62,382 nt of DNA from a virus. The stretch is from the IMG/VR virus record IMGVR_UViG_3300037418_002157. One strand, given 5' to 3'. This document shows, in pieces, positions 3,133-39,181 of the stretch (its first letter is position 1; every line of letters starts with the position of its first letter). Below the pieces are notes generated by a model, which saw only the letters and a list, made by a program, of their open reading frames with translations, searched no databases and was not told the DNA's origin. A program made the translations under genes and the position numbers.

Positions 3133-3423
3133 TCAGCCCTCCGCGGCACGCCTGCTTGGGTCAACCACGTAGATCCCCATTCCGGTGATCGTCTCGACGA
3201 GTCCCGCGTCCTTAAGCACCTGAGTGGCCTTGCGGAGGGTGTCACGGGCGACGTTGTACGTCTGCTCCATCTCGACCATGGAAGGGATGCGCCGGCCAGG
3301 TGGGATCGTCCCGTCCTCGATCTTCCGCCGTAGATCGTCGGCGATCTGCCGGTATGGGGGTACGGGCCCTTCCCTGTCGATGATCACTCTTTGGACGCTA
3401 GTCTGCCACCCATACCACGCCAT
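3133..3423 (-). CDS. GntR-family winged-HTH transcriptional regulator (96 aa, DNA-binding domain only)
   Basis: PPYRQIADDLRRKIEDGTIPPGRRIPSMVEMEQTYNVARDTLRKATQVLKDAGLVETITGMGIYV is a canonical GntR HTH pattern. Confidence 0.85.
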   Translation of the reverse strand: MAWYGWQTSVQRVIIDREGPVPPYRQIADDLRRKIEDGTIPPGRRIPSMVEMEQTYNVARDTLRKATQVLKDAGLVETITGMGIYVVDPSRRAAEG

Positions 3424-3433
3424 AGCTACCCAT

Positions 3434-3473
3434 GGGGGTAGTAGGGGGTAGTAAGGTCAAGGTCACAGTAAGG
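3434..3473. promoter_or_regulatory. Tandem direct repeats (operator candidates) in the divergent region next to the GntR gene
   Basis: GGGGGTAGTA twice in tandem (3434-3453), AGGTCA twice in tandem (3454-3465), and GTAAGG twice (3451-3456, 3468-3473). Confidence 0.45.
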
Positions 3474-3529
3474 ACCCCCGCAGCCGCTGTCACGGCTCGG
3501 GGGCGTGGCCGACGGAGTGGAGCGTCGAC

Positions 3530-3712
3530 ATGGCAGATCGTAGAGGCGAGCAGCCCCCACCGCAGCCCACCCAGCAGCCTGCGGCCTGTCACTGCGGCAG
3601 CCACGACCACCAGCCCCTGCGCGTCGGCGAAACCCTCTCCCTGTCCGGCGAGCCGATACCCGTCGTCATCTGCCCCGCCGAATCCGCCAGCGGCCTCGAG
3701 GGCGCACTGTGA
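3530..3712 (+). CDS. Hypothetical protein (60 aa)
   Basis: ORF track. Moderate-to-high GC3. Coupled to the next ORF by GTGA. Confidence 0.4.
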   Translation: MADRRGEQPPPQPTQQPAACHCGSHDHQPLRVGETLSLSGEPIPVVICPAESASGLEGAL

Positions 3713-3879
3713 CCGGGCAGGAGCGGCAGCGCGAAGACATCTGCGGGCCGTGCCGCATCGGCGAATGCAAGCACTGCGACGGCAACATCGACCTCAAGCC
3801 CGGCGGCGGGCCGGCTGTGCCGCTCGCCAGGTGCGCGCACGCGTGCAGCAGGGGGCGGGTGCGGCAGGTCAAGGCTTGA
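3709..3879 (+). CDS. Small Cys-rich hypothetical protein (56 aa)
   Basis: Manual translation VTGQERQREDICGPCRIGECKHCDGNIDLKPGG...CAHAC. GTG overlaps the upstream stop. Zinc-ribbon-like CxxC/CxxC. Confidence 0.45.
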   Translation: MTGQERQREDICGPCRIGECKHCDGNIDLKPGGGPAVPLARCAHACSRGRVRQVKA

Positions 3880-4025
3880 TCGCTGGCCAACGCATTACCG
3901 CAGGTAGCGCAACGGGCGGGATGTGTGTGAACTGTGCAGATATATGCAGCGTGAACCTTCCGTTACCGACGGTACGCGGGGTTGAATCCCGGTCAGCAAG
4001 CGGTTGTGATCACCGCCGCACCAGG

Positions 4026-4963: not shown

Positions 4964-6226
4964 TCAACTAGCAGTTGGGGGATCCGGGAGAGGAACCGGG
5001 CCGAACTCGCGCCGGTCGACAACCGGCTTCAACGACTGCTCCCAACGGGACTGCAGCGTCTCGGCGATCTTCAGCTCCATCGTCAGCGTCGTGTGAGAGT
5101 AGGTCCCCTCGACGCCCTGGAGCGTGTGGCCCATCCGCTCCTCAACAGCCACTTTAGGGTGCCCGTCCTCATCCAGCCAGACCTTGTGCGAATGCCGCAG
5201 ACCGTGCGGCACCAGCCCCTCAACCCCCAGCACCGGCCGCACCCCCGGCCGGTAGCCGACCCGCGGCTTCGCCGGCCGCTCCGGACGCCCCGCCACCATG
5301 AACCGCCACGGCCCGGAATACCAGTCCCCGCCGCGCAGCAGCCGGCCACCCCGAGGCGCGGTGAACACCCACTCCGACCCCGGGCGCGAGTCCAGCAGTT
5401 GCTGAAGCAGCGCGGCCAGGAACACCGGGATGATCAGGCCGCGGCCCGAGTCGTACTTCGCCGGGATCTGAGTGAACTCCCCATCCACGTACTGGCTCTG
5501 ATGCTCCAGATGGATACGGGCACCCAGGCCGCGGTCGGTCAGCTCCAGCTGGCTGCGGTGCACGCCCGCGAGTTCGCCGATGCGCAGGCCCGTGTAGGCG
5601 GAGGTGATGACGAGCGCGTACTCGTTCAGCCCGTACATCTGCAGCCCGTTGCGGGCTATCAGCAGCACCTGGCGGGGCGTTGCGATGACCTTCTCGTCCT
5701 TCGGCTTCGGCTTGTACTTGCCGCGCCGGCCGGACTTGCGGGCCGCGACGGGGTTGTCGCCGCGCAGCTTCTCGCTGACGGCGTCGTCCAGCATGGTGCG
5801 CAGGACGCTCATCACACCGTCGGCGTAGTTCTTGGAGACGTCCTTGCGGAGCTTCTTCTCCCACGTGGATATCCCGGTGGCGGACAGGTCACCGACAGCC
5901 ACCGTCCCCCACTGGGGGAGGATCTTGTTCTTGAGGCGGAGCCGGTACTCCTTCTCGCTGAGCGGCCCGACGTCGATGGACTCGATCCACGCCTCGGCCC
6001 ACTCGGCGACCGTGATACGGCCATCGCGCGGATTGATGAACGTCTTGCGCCGCACGTCGGTTTCGAGGCCGGCGGCGTAGTCGCGGGCGGCACGCGCGCT
6101 GTAGAAGGGCTGTCCGCGGTCGTCCTTGGAGACCGAGCCCCACTGGCCGTTGGGGAGTTTGTAGCGTCCGCGCCAGCGCCACTTGCGGGCCCGCTTGTCG
6201 TAGCCGCGTTTCTCCGCGTGCGCCAT
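4964..6226 (-). CDS. int: Tyrosine integrase (420 aa)
   Basis: Catalytic signature TGLRIGEL (Arg), HGLRHSH (His-x-x-Arg) and MGH...GTYSH (His, Tyr). N-terminal arm-binding/SAM-like region. Confidence 0.95.
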   Translation of the reverse strand: MAHAEKRGYDKRARKWRWRGRYKLPNGQWGSVSKDDRGQPFYSARAARDYAAGLETDVRRKTFINPRDGRITVAEWAEAWIESIDVGPLSEKEYRLRLKNKILPQWGTVAVGDLSATGISTWEKKLRKDVSKNYADGVMSVLRTMLDDAVSEKLRGDNPVAARKSGRRGKYKPKPKDEKVIATPRQVLLIARNGLQMYGLNEYALVITSAYTGLRIGELAGVHRSQLELTDRGLGARIHLEHQSQYVDGEFTQIPAKYDSGRGLIIPVFLAALLQQLLDSRPGSEWVFTAPRGGRLLRGGDWYSGPWRFMVAGRPERPAKPRVGYRPGVRPVLGVEGLVPHGLRHSHKVWLDEDGHPKVAVEERMGHTLQGVEGTYSHTTLTMELKIAETLQSRWEQSLKPVVDRREFGPVPLPDPPTAS

Positions 6227-15012: not shown

Positions 15013-17517
15013 GTGAGCCCCGACTACACCACCCTCGAGGCAGCCCTCGCCTGGCACCACGCTGGCGCCAGCGTCGTCCGGGCTGCCATCGACGGCACCA
15101 AGCGGCCGGACGGGGCATGGAAGCAGTACCAGACGAAGCGCCCCACCGAAGACATCGTCCGCCAGTGGTTCACCGGCGGGCACCCCGGCCTCGGCATCAT
15201 CCTCGGCTCCGTCTCCGGCGGCCTCGAGATGCTCGAGTTCGAAGGCCGCGCCGTCACCGAGAAGCGCCACGAGGAGTTCGACGAGATCGCTGAGGCGTCC
15301 GGGCTGAGCAACGTGTGGCAGCGCATCAAGGACGGCTACTGCGAGCAGACACCGTCCGGCGGCTACCACCTCGTCTACCGCGTCACCGACGGGCCCGTCC
15401 TGCCCAACACGAAGCTCGCCCGCCGCCCAGCCACCGCCGAGGAACTCGCCGCCAAGCCCAGCGAGAAAATCAAAGTCCTCGTTGAAACACGCGGCGAAGG
15501 CGGCTTCGTCATCACCGCCCCCTCCCACGGACCCGTCCACGAGACCGGTCAACCCTGGCAGTTGCTCGCCGGAGACACCAAGAACCTGGCCGAGATCACC
15601 GCGGACGAACGGGACGCCCTGTTCACCATCGCCCGCATGCTCGACCAAATGCCCGCCACCGAGCAGCCCACCCCGACCACCCCCGAACAGCCGACCAGCA
15701 CTGCAGACTTCGGCGGCGTCAAGCCCGGCGAGGACTACGAGCAGCGCACCGACTGGGCTGACATCCTCACCCCCCACGGCTGGCGGCTGCTCGGCCAGCA
15801 CGGCAACACCCGATACTGGCAGCGGCCCGGAAAGACAGGCATCGGCCCCTCCGCCACCACCGGCCACGCCGACGACCGCGACCGCCTCTACGTCTTCACC
15901 ACCAGCACAGAGTTCGACGCCGAGCGCCCCTACACCAAGTTCGGCGCCTACGCCCTCCTCGAACACGGCGGCGACCATTCCGCCGCCGCCAAAGAACTCC
16001 GCCGCCGCGGCTACGGCAGCGCCCCCACCACCCCCACGGGCCGACCGCAGCTGCGCATCGTCAACGGCTTCACCCAGCCGATCACCGGCGCCCCGCCCGT
16101 CGACGGCGCCAACGCTCTCCAGACGGACACCGCGCCGCGCGCCGCGGCCTCGAGCGGCAGCTGGCCCGAGTCGTTCACCGACGACGGCAACGCCCTGCTC
16201 TTCGTCGACACCTACGGCAACCAGCTGAGGTACGTCCCGCAGCGCAGCATGTGGCTGCTGTGGGAAGGCCACCGCTGGGCGTGGGACGAAGGCGGCCTCG
16301 TCGTCGAACTCGCCCGCGACATGATCCGCGACCTCGACCCCACCGTCTTCGGCGATGAAGACCTCGAGAAAGCCGCCCGCAAGCACAAGGCCTCCAGCCT
16401 GTCCCGCGACAAAGTCAACGCGGCTATTCATCTGTCCCGTACCGATCGTCGCGTCGTCGCTCCGGCCTCCGAGCTCGACGCCATCGCCACTCACCTCAAC
16501 ACCCCGGGCGGCATCGTCGATCTCGTCACCGGAGAAATGCACCCCTCCGACCCGGGCGCCCTGCACACCCGCTCCACTGCGGTCGAGCCCGACTTCGAGG
16601 CCGACGCACCACGCTGGCAGACCTTCCTCGCCGACACGTTCGGCGAGGACACCGAACTCGCCGCGTTCGTGCAGCGGCTGGCCGGCTACTCCGCCAGCGG
16701 CGACACACGCTTTCACGTCCTGCCGTTCCTGCACGGCCCCGGGGGGAACGGCAAAACCGTCTTCCTCGACGTACTGCGCATCCTGCTCGGCGACTACGCA
16801 GCAACCGCCCCCAACACCTTCCTCATGGTCGGCCAGCAGCAACACGAAACCGAAGTCGCCCGCCTCGCAGGCCTGCGCCTCGTCGTCGTCTCCGAGGTCA
16901 ACCAGGACGCCCGCTTCGACGAAGCCAAGATGAAGCTCCTCACTGGCGGCGACGCCCTCACCGCCCGGTTCATGCGCCAGGACCACTTCACGTTCGAACC
17001 CACCCACCACTTGTGGCTGATGGGCAACCACCTGCCTGCCGTGAAAGCAGGCGGTGACTCCTTCTGGCGGCGCCTGCGCCTCGTCCCCTTCACCCGCACC
17101 GTCTCCGAAGAGAAGAAGATCGACGGGCTCGCCCGCATCCTCGCCAACGAAGAAGGCCCGGCGATCCTCGCCTGGATGATTCGCGGCGCCGTCGACGCGT
17201 TCGCCGCCAAACTTCGCGAGCCGGCCGCCGTCATGGCCTTCACCGAGTCCTACGCCGAGGAAGAGGACGCCCTCGCGCGATTCATGGAGGACTGCTGCCA
17301 CCTCGGCGGAGGCACGCACGTCACCACGCTCACGGCAAAGCTGCGCGGCGCCTATGAGGACTGGTGCAAGACCGAGGGCGAGATTCCTCTCAAGCCTCAG
17401 GTGCTCGGCCGCGAACTTCGGACTCGTTTCGGTATTGACCAGAAGCGCAGCAATGGTCGGCGTATGTACGTCGGTGTCGCTCTTGTCGCCAGCGACGTCG
17501 ACGACGAGGGGGAGTGA
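15013..17517 (+). CDS. Bifunctional primase-polymerase (prim-pol) plus D5/P4-type SF3 helicase replicase
   Basis: N-terminal prim-pol pattern (KRPDGAWKQYQ, GLGIILG, ETRGEGGFVITAPS). C-terminal P-loop GPGGNGKTVFLDVL and Walker B LVVVSEV. GTG at 15013 with an AAGGAGA RBS. Confidence 0.88.
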   Translation: MSPDYTTLEAALAWHHAGASVVRAAIDGTKRPDGAWKQYQTKRPTEDIVRQWFTGGHPGLGIILGSVSGGLEMLEFEGRAVTEKRHEEFDEIAEASGLSNVWQRIKDGYCEQTPSGGYHLVYRVTDGPVLPNTKLARRPATAEELAAKPSEKIKVLVETRGEGGFVITAPSHGPVHETGQPWQLLAGDTKNLAEITADERDALFTIARMLDQMPATEQPTPTTPEQPTSTADFGGVKPGEDYEQRTDWADILTPHGWRLLGQHGNTRYWQRPGKTGIGPSATTGHADDRDRLYVFTTSTEFDAERPYTKFGAYALLEHGGDHSAAAKELRRRGYGSAPTTPTGRPQLRIVNGFTQPITGAPPVDGANALQTDTAPRAAASSGSWPESFTDDGNALLFVDTYGNQLRYVPQRSMWLLWEGHRWAWDEGGLVVELARDMIRDLDPTVFGDEDLEKAARKHKASSLSRDKVNAAIHLSRTDRRVVAPASELDAIATHLNTPGGIVDLVTGEMHPSDPGALHTRSTAVEPDFEADAPRWQTFLADTFGEDTELAAFVQRLAGYSASGDTRFHVLPFLHGPGGNGKTVFLDVLRILLGDYAATAPNTFLMVGQQQHETEVARLAGLRLVVVSEVNQDARFDEAKMKLLTGGDALTARFMRQDHFTFEPTHHLWLMGNHLPAVKAGGDSFWRRLRLVPFTRTVSEEKKIDGLARILANEEGPAILAWMIRGAVDAFAAKLREPAAVMAFTESYAEEEDALARFMEDCCHLGGGTHVTTLTAKLRGAYEDWCKTEGEIPLKPQVLGRELRTRFGIDQKRSNGRRMYVGVALVASDVDDEGE

Positions 17518-17520
17518 TGA

Positions 17521-17763
17521 CAGTGCCCGCAGTGCCCGTTCAGTGCCCGATCCAAAATGCCATCAGGCACTCGCTGGTACACGATCTGACCTGCAATGGT
17601 TGCGAATCAGTGCCCGCAGTGCCCGATGTTCTGCAGTTCCACCGTTACACGCATGCATGCGCGCGCGCATCAGCCCTCATATGCAAACTACGGGCACTAC
17701 GGGCACTGTTCACCGGATTGCTGCAGGTGGAAGCCCTAATCGCGGCAGTGCCCGATCGGGCAC
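17521..17763. repeat. Iteron-like array of the 9-mer CAGTGCCCG in both orientations (candidate replication origin)
   Basis: Forward copies at 17521, 17530, 17541, 17608, 17617 and 17744. Reverse copies CGGGCACT(G/A) at 17689, 17698 and 17755. Palindrome CAGTGCCCGatCGGGCACTG at 17744-17763. Locally lower GC and low GC3 in the overlapping ORF. Confidence 0.6.
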
Positions 17764-17805
17764 TGTCCACATGGTGGAACGGTGAATCACGGGCGGTGAC
17801 GGCCC

Positions 17806-18171
17806 GTGACTAAAAAGCCGCCGCCGTGGCTCGACCTATCCGCACCCCTCACCGACCGGCCCCGAACCCGTCTGTGCGCCTGGTGCGGACAACCTGTCCT
17901 GCTGGCCCTCGTCGGCCACGTCGCCGCCCTCCAAGTACGCGCCGACCCCAAACCCCTCAACCCGCTCGAGGAACTCGCCGCACGCCTCCAAGGACGCACC
18001 ACCTACTGCCTGCGCCTGCACCCCGTACTACGGCCCCGCCTGATCAACCGCAGCGCCGCGCACATCCGGGCCGGCCGCTGCACCCACCTTGTCGTCGCCG
18101 ACCACCACTGCACACGGACACCGGCACCCGCCGAACCCCACACCGCAACCCAGGCCAACCGACTCTTCTGA
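17806..18171 (+). CDS. Hypothetical protein (121 aa)
   Basis: ORF track. GTG start. Contains CAWCG. Confidence 0.55.
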   Translation: MTKKPPPWLDLSAPLTDRPRTRLCAWCGQPVLLALVGHVAALQVRADPKPLNPLEELAARLQGRTTYCLRLHPVLRPRLINRSAAHIRAGRCTHLVVADHHCTRTPAPAEPHTATQANRLF

Positions 18172-18185
18172 AAGGAACAACGACC

Positions 18186-18869
18186 ATGGGGAAGATCCCC
18201 GACCACGGAACCGCCAGCCGCTACCAGGGCTCCCGACGCAACGCCAACTGGGCACCCTGCCGCTGCGATCTCTGCCGCGCCGCCTTCCGCCGCGACGAGA
18301 AAGTAAGGGAACTGCGGCGCCTGCGCGGCATTCCTTCCTATGCGCCCATCGGGCCCGTCGCTGCTCACGTTCGCGTGCTGCTGGAATCCGGCTGGACCCT
18401 CGACAGCATTACCCGCGAAGCAAACGTCAGCAGGCGAGCCCTCGGGAACTGGCTGAACAATCCGCCCTCCGGTGTGCAGCACGAAGTGGCCGCGCGAGTA
18501 CTGGTACTGAAGCCAGCCACCACTGGCCCCCTGCTCGTACCGGCGCTCGGCAGCGCGCGGCGGCTACAGGCCCTCGCCGCGATGGGCTGGCCAGTCAGCT
18601 GGTCGGGCCCCCAGGCCGGCATCACGGACACCTACGCTCGCCTGCTCGTGCGGGGCCGCCACGGTTCCGTAGGCGCTGCTGTGGCCGCCCGCATCGACGC
18701 CGTGTACCGGCGGCACTGCATGATTCCCGGCCCTTCAGAGTTCGCACGGGCGCACGCCCGCCGCAACGAGTGGGTGACCGCCGTCGCTTGGGACGACATC
18801 GACGACCCCAAGGACAAGCCGCACAGCGTCATCGGCCGCTGCGAGCGCCGCCGCCGCACTGCCGCCTGA
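18186..18869 (+). CDS. HTH DNA-binding domain protein (227 aa)
   Basis: N-terminal HGTASRYQGSRRNANWAPCRCDLCRAA motif, which is common in actinophage DNA-binding proteins. Repeated HTH-like segments. ATG at 18186. Confidence 0.6.
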   Translation: MGKIPDHGTASRYQGSRRNANWAPCRCDLCRAAFRRDEKVRELRRLRGIPSYAPIGPVAAHVRVLLESGWTLDSITREANVSRRALGNWLNNPPSGVQHEVAARVLVLKPATTGPLLVPALGSARRLQALAAMGWPVSWSGPQAGITDTYARLLVRGRHGSVGAAVAARIDAVYRRHCMIPGPSEFARAHARRNEWVTAVAWDDIDDPKDKPHSVIGRCERRRRTAA

Positions 18870-30413: not shown

Positions 30414-30922
30414 TGACTGGCATCACCTACGTCATGACGCACCGCGGCTACCGGTCGGTGAAGGTCGGTTACACGAGCCCTGATTCGCTCCGGCTGAGCG
30501 GCCTGCGGCGCGGGGGATGGGAGCCCTTCCGTCAGCTCGCCTGCGAGTCCACTTCGCTGGCGCGCGAGATCGAACAGGCGGCCCTCTTCGAGATCCGATT
30601 CCGGCTGTACGTGCCCGTGCATCTGACGCCTACGCAGATGCGTGGCGTCCACGGCTGGAGTGAGACGTCGAGCATTGCCGTGATCAGCCCCAGCGAGGTG
30701 TGGGAGATCGTCTGCGAGAAGGGCGCCCTGGAGCAGCTCGCGCCAACCGTCAAGAAGACCCGCGTCTACAAACCGCCAGTGAAGCGCGGTGTACGTCGAT
30801 CTGGCGACGTCCCCGACTTCGTGCGCGCTGCCCGCATCGAAGCGTCACGCACCGCCCGCGCCAACCGGGTCGGTGGACCCCAGAAGTCCAAGGCCAAGAA
30901 CGCCCGCCAGAAGGACCAGTGA
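30413..30922 (+). CDS. T5orf172/GIY-YIG-like domain protein with a basic tail (169 aa)
   Basis: YVMTHRGYRSVKVGYTS...EIEQAALFEIRFRL...HGWSET pattern, then a K/R-rich C-terminus. Coupled at both ends. Confidence 0.45.
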   Translation: MTGITYVMTHRGYRSVKVGYTSPDSLRLSGLRRGGWEPFRQLACESTSLAREIEQAALFEIRFRLYVPVHLTPTQMRGVHGWSETSSIAVISPSEVWEIVCEKGALEQLAPTVKKTRVYKPPVKRGVRRSGDVPDFVRAARIEASRTARANRVGGPQKSKAKNARQKDQ

Positions 30923-32925
30923 TGAGCCTCGACGCCCACCCCGAGTTCCCCGCCGACTGGGACGACAGCAAGGTGATCCACGGCGAGCTGCACGTGCCCG
31001 ACGACCTGTCCGACGAGGACATCCCGCCCGGCATAGTGGTCCCCTACACGCCGCGCCCGCCCGTCCTCAGCAAGGCGGGCGGGGCGGCCATGGTCGTCGT
31101 CGCGAAGACCGGCCGCTTCACCGGCCTGTCCGTGCGCTACTTCGGCGTCGGCCTCAAGGCCGTCTGCCACCTCGGCTGGCGGTACGTGCGCGCCCACGAC
31201 CTTCAGGAGGTCATCGGCGGCATGCAGAAGAAAGGCGACTGGAACAAGGTCGACGACGTCCGCAAGAAGCGGTGGAAGTTCCTCGGCTGGACGGCCGGCA
31301 TCACCGCCGGCCTCAACCTGGCCGGCTGGTGGGCGCTGGTGAAGTTCGCCGACATGACGGCTGCGGGCTGGTCCTGGAAGATCCCGCCCACCACCACCGC
31401 AGCGATCGCCGCCACCCTGATCGCCCTGTACGGCCGCTACCGGACCAACCGGCCCGAAATCGGCCCCCTGCAGATGATCGCCGAGCAGGACAACCCGAAC
31501 TCGGACGAGCCGTTCCCGCTCGCCGTGTGCACCTCCCCCGGCATGGTCGAGGACTGCGTATCCCGCGCCCTCGCCTGGGAGGGCATCGAAGCCCGCGCGA
31601 TCCGGGTGCTCGGTTTCCACGGCACGTTCTGGGAGATCGACGTCATCCTCAAGGGCTCCACCCCCGGCAAGGTCAACGCGGTCGCCGACCAACTCGACGC
31701 CCACTTCAACATCAAGCAGGGCGGCACTCTCATCGACCCCGACCCGCAGCAGTCTGCGCACGTCGTGCTGCGCCTGGTCGTCGGCAACCCCTTCGAGGGC
31801 ATGCCGAAGCCTGCCGTGCACGCCCCCAACAGTCTCGACATCGCCGACAGCCACAACTTCGGCCGCTGCATGGACGGCAGCTCCCTCGATATGGTCCTCG
31901 AAGGGCAGCGCATCCTCGTCATCGGCGTATCCGGCTCCGCCAAGTCCACCGGCGTCCTACGCGACCTCGCCGAGGTCATCACCGCCTGCCACAACGCCAT
32001 CGCCCTCGACATGGACCCCGTCAAGGACGGCCTGCGCGAGTTCGAAGGCGCCATGGCCGCCCCGCCGATCCGCGGAGCCAAGGCCTGCGAGCAGTGGCTC
32101 GAGTACCTGGTGAAGATGGCCAGCGGACGCAACGCCGTCCGCAACCGGCTCGGCATGGGCGACACCTGGGTCGCCACCAAGGAACGCCCCGCGATCTTCG
32201 CGCTCGTCGACGAGTTCATCTTCCTCAGCCAGAAGGCCAAGGAGAAGTTCATCGAACTCCTACGCATCGGCAAGCAGTCCGGGATCTACGTGGTCGCCGC
32301 CGGCCAGGACGCCACCTCCGATGCCATGGGTGACGCCATCGCCGACACGTTCACCACCAGCATCATGCTCGCCTCCCGCTGGGACGACATCCGCCTGGTC
32401 CTCGGCCAGGGCGCAGCGGCCAAGGGCTACCGGCCCGACCGGCTCGTGCCCGCCCAGAACAAGCAGATCAAGAACGATGCGGGCCAGTCCTACATCAAGG
32501 GCCCCGGCCTGGACCGGCCCCTGCTGTACGGCTGGAACGAGCACAGCAACGAGGCCATCAAGCGCGCCGTCGCCGACCGCATCAAGGCCGGGCGGCCCAC
32601 GTTTGACCGCGACACCCTCGCCGCGGCCGGGCTGCTCCATCTTGCCGACGCAGGAGCGGAGCAGAAGCGCATCAGCGGGGACCGGCAGATCGTCTTCGAC
32701 GCGATCGAGGTCATGACCGAAGCCGGCGTCGAACGGATCCGCCCCGAGCCGCTCGCCGAGGCGCTCACCGAGCTGAAGCCGGAGCTGTACGGCGACCTGA
32801 CGGTTGCCGAACTGCGGAAGCTGCTGCGGGAGATCGGCGTCGGCGCCCCTGTGCCGATCGGCGACATCGACGGGCTGACGAACCCGCGTGGCTACAAGCT
32901 CGAACAGCTGACCACTTTGACCTAG
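30922..32925 (+). CDS. traB: FtsK/SpoIIIE-family DNA translocase, Streptomyces TraB-like (667 aa)
   Basis: N-terminal TM segments. Walker A-like ILVIGVSGSAKSTGVL. Walker B AIFALVDEF. Followed by YVVAAGQDATSD and a helical wHTH-like C-terminus. ATG at 30922 overlaps the upstream TGA. Confidence 0.78.
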   Translation: MSLDAHPEFPADWDDSKVIHGELHVPDDLSDEDIPPGIVVPYTPRPPVLSKAGGAAMVVVAKTGRFTGLSVRYFGVGLKAVCHLGWRYVRAHDLQEVIGGMQKKGDWNKVDDVRKKRWKFLGWTAGITAGLNLAGWWALVKFADMTAAGWSWKIPPTTTAAIAATLIALYGRYRTNRPEIGPLQMIAEQDNPNSDEPFPLAVCTSPGMVEDCVSRALAWEGIEARAIRVLGFHGTFWEIDVILKGSTPGKVNAVADQLDAHFNIKQGGTLIDPDPQQSAHVVLRLVVGNPFEGMPKPAVHAPNSLDIADSHNFGRCMDGSSLDMVLEGQRILVIGVSGSAKSTGVLRDLAEVITACHNAIALDMDPVKDGLREFEGAMAAPPIRGAKACEQWLEYLVKMASGRNAVRNRLGMGDTWVATKERPAIFALVDEFIFLSQKAKEKFIELLRIGKQSGIYVVAAGQDATSDAMGDAIADTFTTSIMLASRWDDIRLVLGQGAAAKGYRPDRLVPAQNKQIKNDAGQSYIKGPGLDRPLLYGWNEHSNEAIKRAVADRIKAGRPTFDRDTLAAAGLLHLADAGAEQKRISGDRQIVFDAIEVMTEAGVERIRPEPLAEALTELKPELYGDLTVAELRKLLREIGVGAPVPIGDIDGLTNPRGYKLEQLTTLT

Positions 32926-38496: not shown

Positions 38497-38519
38497 CCCA
38501 GCCTTTTTCTGGAGGCCCC

Positions 38520-38873
38520 ATGCCATTTCGGCTCAAGCCTCCCTGCTCACGGCCCGGCTGCGACCAGGCCAAGCCCTGCCCGATCCACGGCCGGGACACG
38601 CGACGGCGAGGCGGTGCACGTCAGCGCGGCTACACCACACGCCACGAGGACCGCTTCCGTCGTGGCGTTCTGGATGCTCAGCCAGTGTGTGTCCTGTGCC
38701 GTAGAGCGCCAGCCACAGAGGCAGACCACTGGCCCAAGTCCAGGCAGCAGCTTGAGGCTGAAGGCCTGGACGCCAACGATCCGCAGTACGGCCGAGGCTT
38801 GTGCAAGCCGTGCCACAGCCGAGAGACCGCGCGTCATCAGCCCGGAGGTTGGGCAGCCGAACAGCAGAGGTGA
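38520..38873 (+). CDS. HNH endonuclease (117 aa)
   Basis: CVLCRRAPATEADHWP...GLCKPCHSRET. Located next to the terminase genes. Confidence 0.85.
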   Translation: MPFRLKPPCSRPGCDQAKPCPIHGRDTRRRGGARQRGYTTRHEDRFRRGVLDAQPVCVLCRRAPATEADHWPKSRQQLEAEGLDANDPQYGRGLCKPCHSRETARHQPGGWAAEQQR

Positions 38874-38879
38874 TAGCCG

Positions 38880-39065
38880 ATGCCAAAGGGACGCAGTGGG
38901 CGAGCGCGGGGCATCGTGGCCGGCCGACAGCAGGTGTACGAACGCCTCAAGGTCACGATAGGGAAGACGCGAGCCGCGAAGATCGCCAACGCGGGAAAGA
39001 CGCATCAGGATCGAGTTCGGATGGCTCGGAAGGCTGCTCGGACACGCAAGATCCATGGACGATGA
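38880..39065 (+). CDS. Small basic hypothetical protein (61 aa), uncertain
   Basis: ORF track. GC3 is only about 70 percent, lower than neighbouring genes. Confidence 0.35.
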   Translation: MPKGRSGRARGIVAGRQQVYERLKVTIGKTRAAKIANAGKTHQDRVRMARKAARTRKIHGR

Positions 39066-39181
39066 TCACGACGCGAGCGGGCGGGCAGGGGTACCACCCC
39101 CACGCGCGCGCGTGAGGGACCGCGGGGGAGGGAAATTCCTGACGCCGCAGTTCAGAGCCTTCCGATCGGGGGTGATCTTGC

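Follow-up and report, generated by a model that had tools for sequence, protein, structure and literature searches.

A dense cluster of 9-bp repeats lies directly behind the replicase gene of a temperate phage, and the question that this locus raises is whether these repeats mark the site at which replication of the phage begins. The phage is represented by IMG/VR virus record IMGVR_UViG_3300037418_002157, a stretch of 62,382 bp that was analyzed as a whole and is referred to here as the window. From sequence comparisons and analogy with characterized systems, we consider it very probable that the 288-bp interval at positions 17518-17805 is a replicase-bound replication origin of a temperate actinobacterial phage. 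An initial annotation, made from the letters of the window, had proposed a candidate origin at this place, and this proposal is supported by the architecture of related loci, by the conservation of the iteron columns, by the co-segregation of the repeat unit with the C-terminal domain (CTD) of the replicase, and by a match with the design of the origins of Staphylococcus aureus pathogenicity islands (SaPIs). The computational observations concern the array and its position, an architecture that is kept while the repeat unit changes, the co-segregation of unit and CTD, and the footprints left in the sequence itself.

A repeat array fills the interval behind the replicase gene

The replicase gene ends at position 17517 and the next real gene starts at 17806; the repeats thus fill the interval between them, the first iteron beginning 4 nt past the replicase stop codon. 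The repeated unit, CAGTGCCCG, occurs eight times in exact form in the window, against 1.75 copies expected (sd 1.12; maximum of 4 in 100 dinucleotide shuffles), and all eight exact copies are confined to 245 bp (17521-17765). Outside these coordinates, the window holds neither an exact CAGTGCCCG nor a cluster of copies with one mismatch. The array is real, and chance is excluded as its source. Exact copies start at positions 17521, 17530, 17541, 17608, 17617, and 17746 on the + strand and occupy 17700-17708 and 17757-17765 on the - strand. A ninth copy, on the - strand at 17691-17699, reads TAGTGCCCG and carries one mismatch, while a tenth, reverse and degenerate, carries two. The elements of the array are the following.

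17521-17549, + strand: left array, three direct copies of CAGTGCCCG; relatives have three to five direct copies of their local unit there
17564-17572, - strand: degenerate reverse iteron CAGGCACTC, conserved in close relatives
17608-17625, + strand: inner doublet of forward iterons, forming the left arm of the core dyad
17626-17690: spacer of 65 bp, predicted melting and initiation site, with 54% GC against 69% for the locus
17646-17670: perfectly alternating purine-pyrimidine tract of 25 nt, TACACGCATGCATGCGCGCGCGCAT
17691-17708, - strand: inner doublet of reverse iterons, forming the right arm of the core dyad, its first copy with one mismatch
17746-17765, both strands: right array, a head-to-head pair that forms the perfect 20-bp palindrome CAGTGCCCGATCGGGCACTG

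The arms of the core dyad (17608-17630 and 17686-17708) are 87% complementary with 55 nt between them, and a long hairpin is predicted for the core (17600-17716) as single-stranded DNA (-29.1 kcal/mol, z = -3.9). The degenerate reverse iteron is kept in the related loci L101-L103, and its site in a further relative, L104, is the perfect CGGTCACTG, i.e., L104's own unit; a reverse copy at the matching relative position is also found in L036, L037, and L041. The second half of the right palindrome is degenerate in L101-L103 (CTGGCACTG). A search of Rfam gave no match in the window, and a scan of 17000-18300 yielded no promoter and a sole weak terminator-like site, on the opposite strand within the replicase gene.

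Most of what the initial annotation had said of the array holds. Its copies are confirmed, as are the two back-to-back doublets, the perfect palindrome and the lower-GC centre that it had described; four of its positions (17744, 17689, 17698, and 17755) need to be raised by 2 nt each, and a mismatch is present in one of the reverse copies that it had listed.

The layout is shared by relatives while the repeat unit changes

Megablast of the region from 14.5 to 19.5 kb against phages and plasmids returned short and weak matches only, so relatives were found through the replicase protein, and homologous loci (designated here by L numbers) were drawn from genomes, viral contigs, metagenomes, and exact-protein look-ups. 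For each lineage representative, the origin window was defined as 500 nt around and after the replicase stop codon, both strands were counted, and control windows were taken from the same loci. An 8-mer present at least five times was found in 21 of 27 such origin windows vs. 4 of 666 controls. The common layout consists of three to five direct copies abutting the stop codon, often accompanied by one reverse copy, followed by a forward doublet, a spacer, an inverted doublet and one to three more copies. A strict search for exact matches recovered the succession of doublet, spacer, and inverted doublet in 18 loci, and the spacer of the relatives measures 55-85 bp and lies about 15 GC points under the locus.

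Within this layout, the unit itself differs from lineage to lineage. CAGTGCCCG is the unit of the window and of L101-L103, and CAGTGACCG that of L104. L015, whose replicase is 75% identical to that of the window, uses CAGCTACAGCA; L008-L010 and L016 use AGTGCCGTT, L017 uses AGTGCC(G/A)TT, L012 uses AGTGCCCAGTT, and L019 uses GGGTGACCAGTT. AGTGACAC is found in L036, L037, and the Arthrobacter phage ChuckDuck, AGCTACAC in L041 and L045, and further units in other relatives include GGGTGGCA, ACTGGGCA, CCCCTTCG, and TGACTACA. Where the unit is common to several elements, it is also the part of the interval that varies least: in the four elements with CAGTGCCCG, 6 of 90 iteron columns are variable vs. 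72 of 198 other intergenic columns (p = 2.5e-8). A scan of viral contigs for the exact 18-mer CAGTGCCCGCAGTGCCCG returned seven loci with the doublet only (two or three copies in total) and no array; these were set aside.

Changes of the repeat unit go together with those of the C-terminal domain of the replicase

The gene that precedes the array, and the part of its product that is predicted to recognize the repeats, are placed as follows.

15013-17517, + strand: replicase gene, 834 aa, with an archaeo-eukaryotic primase (AEP) prim-pol domain, D5_N, a superfamily 3 (SF3) helicase (DUF5906 or P4-family primase C-terminal region), and a predicted C-terminal DNA-binding domain
17224-17514, + strand: replicase CTD, residues ~738-834, winged-helix-like, predicted iteron reader

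The replicase matches the Pfam families Prim-Pol (PF09250; 1.2e-10), D5_N (5e-30), and DUF5906 (2.6e-11), as well as PHROG families of DNA primases/polymerases, and it scores 301 bits against NCBIfam TIGR01613 (“phage/plasmid primase, P4 family”; cut-off 108.7), the name that source records give to its homologues. At least 1,867 homologues are found at E <= 1e-50. A full-length AlphaFold2 model built on 80 homologues reached a predicted local distance difference test (pLDDT) score of 81, and a Foldseek search with the whole model gave PrimPol of African swine fever virus (ASFV), E5 of monkeypox virus (MPXV), and D5 of vaccinia virus as top matches. In the CTD, the confidently modeled topology comprises helices at 738-751 and 753-761, two strands, helices at 774-788 and 795-806, and a beta-hairpin at 810-824. 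Its profile matches the C-terminal domain of ASFV C962R (4e-5), PriRep5 of SaPI5 (7OLA; 0.0029), and, weakly, the winged helix of RFX1 (0.15), with a likewise weak match to Pfam Pox_D5 (0.0066); modeling of the CTD from the single sequence gave a pLDDT of 57.8, too low for a structure search. Profile matches and model together suggest that the CTD is winged-helix-like and acts as the reader of the iterons.

One such natural comparison is between L036/L037 and L041/L045, whose replicases are ~95% identical, yet all nine sites of their arrays differ (AGTGACAC vs. AGCTACAC) in an otherwise near-identical backbone. Nine of the 12 replicase substitutions that co-segregate with iteron type in this comparison fall in the last 70 residues (p = 5e-7). 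Over 7.5 kb, the nucleotide sites that co-segregate peak in two places only, the 3′-terminal part of the replicase gene and the array, with 12 and 29 sites per 250 nt, respectively, vs. 0-9 elsewhere. Other pairs agree with this. Identity between the replicases of L012 and L019 amounts to 92% outside the CTD and to 71% inside it, and that between the replicases of the window and L015 to 78% outside and 55% inside; the units differ in both pairs. Conversely, L008 and L010, with 72% identity outside the CTD and 87% inside, have their unit in common. An array that may be an intermediate of a specificity switch is found in L104 (3243-3530), where eight of ten sites have changed from C to A (CAGTGACCG) and the other two keep CAGTGCCCG; in the replicase of this hybrid (P0003), 8 of 19 private residues lie within 738-818. 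The iteron unit and the last ~95 replicase residues thus change in concert, which provides indirect but strong grounds for regarding these residues as the probable iteron reader.

A second motif lies within the interval on either side of the core.

17586-17595, + strand: auxiliary motif CTGACCTGCA, left member of the inverted pair that flanks the core
17722-17729, - strand: right member of the CTGACCTGC inverted pair, degenerate here (TGCAGGTG) and reading GCAGGTCA in L102-L104

The CTGACCTGC(A/G) pair sits ~30 nt outside each inner doublet, at ~+70 and ~+205 nt from the stop codon, and GACCTGC/GCAGGTC is fivefold more frequent in origin regions than elsewhere (2.5 vs. 0.5 per kb). The position of the motif is independent of iteron type, its orientation being flipped in some lineages; its reader must therefore be other than the variable domain of the replicase.

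The spacer holds an alternating purine-pyrimidine tract

The 25-nt tract in the spacer is the longest alternating run of the window, the next measuring 17 nt, and a run of at least 24 nt appeared in 1 of 200 Markov-simulated windows. Alternating tracts of 10-25 nt were likewise found in 15 of the 18 spacers of relatives recovered by the strict search, against a control mean of ~6. Among the window and L101-L104, nine of the ten variable columns in the tract are transitions, whereas 29 transitions stand against 41 transversions in the rest of the interval (p = 0.005). Since the sequence of the tract varies nearly only by transitions, the pattern rather than the sequence seems to be selected, and the tract may act as a supercoil-sensitive unwinding element or as an element prone to form Z-DNA. 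A literature search gave no precedent for alternating purine-pyrimidine tracts as unwinding elements of phages.

The origin region of ChuckDuck contains two tandem AGTGACAC doublets, each with its own alternating tract after it, and that of L025 is similar. Elsewhere in the window, other alternating runs, GTGCGCGCACGCGTGCA (17 nt, 3831-3847) and CACGCGCGCGCGTG (14 nt, 39101-39114), each lie inside a large non-coding gap, at 3388-4025 and at 38497-39181, the latter upstream of the predicted packaging genes.

An open frame crosses the whole interval

The interval is spanned by a frame that contains no stop codon, and the gene that follows overlaps its end.

17517-17813, + strand: open frame of 98 codons (99 from GTG 17514) spanning the whole origin
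17806-18171, + strand: gene for a small CxxC protein, GTG start at 17806, matching phrog_16156 at 9e-18

The start of the frame overlaps the replicase stop codon (TGATG in the window; in relatives, ATGA or GTGA). The stop codon of the frame is situated 5 nt past the GTG start of the next gene, and in relatives the frame usually ends on the start codon of that gene (GTGA, ATGA, TGATG). Of 28 lineage representatives, 19 have this frame open, whereas dinucleotide shuffles would give 4.2 (P < 5e-6) and each of the remaining five frames is open in just 1-5 of the 28. The frame does not, however, evolve as flanking genes do: substitutions by codon position amount to 0.47/0.35/0.40, without periodicity, vs. 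0.16/0.08/0.52 in the replicase and 0.28/0.20/0.50 in the other flanking gene. The peptide has no match in Pfam or PHROG, peptides of different lineages are unrelated, and the gene callers of relatives pass over the region. GC content by codon position (GC1/2/3) is flat at 0.68/0.51/0.64, vs. a GC3 of 0.85-0.93 in the long genes of the window. In ChuckDuck (PQ362676), the “hypothetical protein” gp60 (L106 3975-4316) exactly overlies the predicted AGTGACAC origin, with a GC1/2/3 of 0.58/0.57/0.54.

These figures reproduce the low GC3 of the overlapping 99-aa frame (about 63 percent, against about 90 percent in genes) on which the initial annotation had based its view that the region looks non-coding. 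Part of that view stands, for the frame has no family match and no coding-type substitutions, and the protein-level conservation that would have counted against the proposed origin is absent, the peptide being wholly different between lineages. The other part needs revision: because the frame is kept open and is coupled by its start and stop to both neighbours, it is probably translated. The origin would then be crossed by ribosomes as a coupling or anti-polarity spacer that probably does not encode a functional protein, translation and origin function being not mutually exclusive.

The CxxC gene follows the origin in most lineages, with homologues in L008, L015, L017, and ChuckDuck (gp61), and in L031 its homologue is fused in frame with the ORF (open reading frame) that spans the origin; its product could be an accessory replication factor. 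The GTG start at 17806 is enclosed by a hairpin (TCACGGGCGGT/ACGGCCCGTGA, 17787-17809; z = -2.7) that is also present in the close relatives of the window. As a general cause of the open frame, this start-codon hairpin was rejected, as it is not found in other lineages.

Alternative explanations and points of doubt

An array bound by the replicase could be something other than the start site, namely a cis-acting control element, whether for copy control by handcuffing, for autoregulation or as an enhancer similar to crr of P4, with the true start of replication elsewhere. Such an arrangement has a model in P4 itself, where iterons are clustered both at ori and at crr; binding sites located at the replicase 3′ end could in addition serve the regulation of downstream genes, and the GC skew does not inflect here. 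We nevertheless judge it unlikely, as the window contains a single cluster of the unit, doublets that form a dyad about a structure-prone spacer of lower GC have the geometry of an initiation site, and the homologous position is that of the proven origin in SaPIs and, in pRN1, that of a genetically required element proposed as the origin. It is more improbable still that the repeats are bound by another protein with no role in initiation, be it at a centromere-like partition site, at repressor operators or at sites for the CxxC protein. The conserved CxxC gene behind the array in most lineages and the independence of the CTGACCTGC motif from iteron type would agree with such a protein, but the sites that co-segregate with iteron type between L036/L037 and L041/L045 are limited to the replicase 3′ end and the array, with none in the flanking genes. 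Moreover, no ParA/ParB-type genes were seen among the genes scanned, the phage having an integrase, an excisionase, and a repressor-like gene, and operators would be expected near promoters, none of which the promoter scan found here.

The least probable of these explanations, and a very improbable one, takes the interval as a plain protein-coding gene of 98-99 aa whose DNA repeats are coding repeats (VPAVPV..., LRALRAL). Its strongest argument is the frame itself, which is open in 19 of 28 lineages vs. ~4 expected and overlaps the neighbouring genes at its start and stop, and the SEA-PHAGES annotators did call the equivalent ORF of ChuckDuck (gp60) a hypothetical protein. The mode of evolution argues otherwise: substitutions lack the codon periodicity of the flanking genes, GC1/2/3 is flat where the genes of these organisms have a GC3 near 0.9, no Pfam or PHROG match exists, and the peptides of different lineages are unrelated. 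The copies are moreover symmetric on both strands about the dyad, which indicates a constraint at the level of DNA. Other candidates were rejected: arm sites of an attP, as the integrase gene is 11 kb away; a cos or pac site, as the predicted packaging and structural genes (putative) start near 39.2 kb after a 685-nt gap; and the insertion of a mobile element, as synteny is kept while the unit changes.

The reading of the interval as a replicase-bound origin has to contend with several observations of its own. A literature search returned no description of such an origin type in actinobacteriophages, and some relatives, e.g., Shambre1 and L023, have no clear array after the replicase gene. The cumulative GC skew does not inflect at 17.5 kb, skew being a weak indicator in phages, and the spacer is just relatively GC-poor (54%), unlike the AT-rich centres of SaPIs. 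The CTD resembles PriRep5 only weakly (E = 0.0029), and its winged-helix fold is a prediction, the structural model having been searched as a whole. Finally, the link between CTD and iterons is correlative, and recombination that swaps a module of CTD plus origin would give an identical pattern; an exchange of such a module would, however, also imply that the two are functionally linked.

A model for initiation

By analogy with the Rep protein of SaPIs, the alpha protein of P4, and viral SF3 initiators, from which binding, hexamer assembly, melting site, and priming are all extrapolated, initiation at the predicted origin would proceed as follows. The winged-helix-like CTD of the replicase would read the 9-bp iterons, and the outer arrays would recruit and concentrate the protein. 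The convergent inner doublets would then place two hexamers head to head across the 65-bp spacer. The spacer, which is the lowest-GC stretch here and holds the 25-nt alternating tract, would melt, and the N-terminal prim-pol domain would prime the exposed strands. Ribosomes probably cross the origin in the stop-free frame, whereby the replicase and the downstream gene would be translated in a coupled manner.

A further proposal, which we put forward tentatively and with some doubt, is that the locus exemplifies a high-GC origin design not described before, in which an alternating tract of 20-25 nt, prone to form Z-DNA or a bubble and kept as a pattern by selection, serves as the unwinding element in place of an AT-rich one, and the origin lies inside a frame that is translated, free of stops, and coupled by its start and stop to the genes on both sides while its peptide is unconstrained. 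If this were true, ribosome traffic over the initiator sites could couple origin firing, replicase synthesis, and downstream expression.

Genomic context

The window has 69% GC and represents a temperate, siphovirus-like genome. The host is probably Streptomyces, since the nearest homologues of the replicase whose source is named come from genomes of this genus. A tyrosine integrase gene lies at 4964-6226 on the - strand, and a repressor-like helix-turn-helix protein, an excisionase, RusA, DNA methyltransferases, and a Cas4-like exonuclease are also encoded. A series of long + strand ORFs at ~39.7-60 kb contains the putative structural genes.

Nearly all genes between 7.4 and 61.5 kb are on the + strand. 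Near 39 kb, GC skew changes from negative values (7-39 kb) to positive ones (39-48 kb). Within this tailed-phage genome, the gene at 30919-32925 codes for an FtsK/SpoIIIE-like protein (phrog_12531, 9e-67), a domain typical of actinomycete conjugative DNA translocases.

Significance

The locus provides a precise predicted origin for a very large group of replicons, comprising prophages of Streptomyces and other actinobacteria and some isolated Arthrobacter phages, a group for which no mapped origin was found in the literature. The natural series of CTDs and iteron units, including near-isogenic pairs whose units are one or two bases apart, constitutes a ready dataset for deciphering a DNA-recognition code, and could be used to predict incompatibility and cross-replication of co-resident prophages. 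New vectors for high-GC actinomycetes could also be built with the compact cassette of replicase plus origin as their backbone. The alternating core bears on how origins melt in GC-rich DNA, and the open frame on whether translation across an origin is functional. On a more practical level, the locus draws attention to “hypothetical protein” annotations of a kind that is probably spurious, gp60 of ChuckDuck being an example.

Comparison with known systems

The closest counterpart in design is the SaPI origin, which lies directly downstream of rep and consists of 6-12 iterons of 5-6 bp around an AT-rich centre, with at least two oppositely pointing iterons on each side of the central region (PMC9371898). 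The SaPI Rep protein is a self-loading SF3 helicase whose C-terminal winged helix reads the iterons with a specificity that varies between elements (PMC9371898). In the phage, the array likewise follows the replicase gene directly, starting 4 nt past the stop codon, and the relatives agree in this; its eight exact copies, one copy with one mismatch, and one degenerate copy fall within the range of 6-12; and a forward doublet (17608-17625) and a reverse doublet (17691-17708) flank the centre. The phage initiator is also an SF3 helicase, as judged from its matches to D5_N, DUF5906, and TIGR01613 and in Foldseek. PriRep5 is, like the phage replicase, a primase-helicase fusion, and the phage CTD profile matches it (7OLA, E = 0.0029). 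On the other hand, iterons of the phage family measure 9-11 bp, the centre has 54% GC and a conserved alternating tract, and the phage origin adds the conserved CTGACCTGC inverted pair and lies wholly inside an open frame that is translationally coupled. The setting is also different, the host being a high-GC actinobacterium and the element a full temperate phage rather than a satellite, and sequence similarity is remote.

The alpha protein of P4 is a multifunctional primase-helicase that binds the origin repeats through a C-terminal winged helix, then unwinds and primes (PMC4234260). The helicase region of the phage replicase belongs to the same NCBIfam family as that of P4 (TIGR01613, 301 bits). 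The primases differ, that of P4 being of the Toprim (bacterial DnaG-like) type (PMC4234260) and that of the phage an archaeo-eukaryotic Prim-Pol (PF09250), and P4 requires a second cis element, crr, whereas the window holds no second cluster. In the Sulfolobus plasmid pRN1, an essential cis element located just 3′ of orf904 has a stem of ~21 nt and a loop of ~58 nt (PMC4234260). Its ORF904 and the replicase of Bordetella phage BIP-1 resemble the phage replicase in combining an AEP prim-pol, an SF3 helicase, and a C-terminal winged helix, the last of these predicted in the phage. With arms of 18-23 nt, a spacer of 55-65 nt, and a location 3′ of the replicase gene, the phage dyad is close in dimensions to the pRN1 element. 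That element, however, has been described as a structure without iterons, whereas the apparent stem of the phage is made of iteron doublets with more copies outside, and the hosts belong to different domains of life.

Large T of SV40 and other polyomaviruses and E1 of papillomaviruses are SF3 initiators that act on inverted pairs of short repeats, where head-to-head double hexamers melt the central or flanking DNA. These are eukaryotic viruses, and their initiators have the origin-binding domain N-terminal to the helicase and no winged helix; the analogy is one of mechanism only, with no sequence relationship past the SF3 core. The iterons of ori-lambda lie inside translated sequence, in gene O. 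They encode a conserved and functional part of O, whereas the phage frame is free of protein-level constraint, and the class of initiator differs. Classical iteron plasmids (RepA, pi, TrfA) have direct iterons of 17-22 bp, DnaA boxes, and an AT-rich DNA unwinding element, with a winged-helix Rep protein that recruits the host DnaB. The phage unit, in contrast, is 9 bp long, with copies in either orientation about a dyad, and the initiator is itself a helicase-primase. Judged by sequence and by these analogies, the predicted origin is a further member of the iteron origins of P4-, SaPI-, and pRN1-like primase-helicases, to which the alternating tract and the open, unconstrained frame could add features beyond the known pattern.

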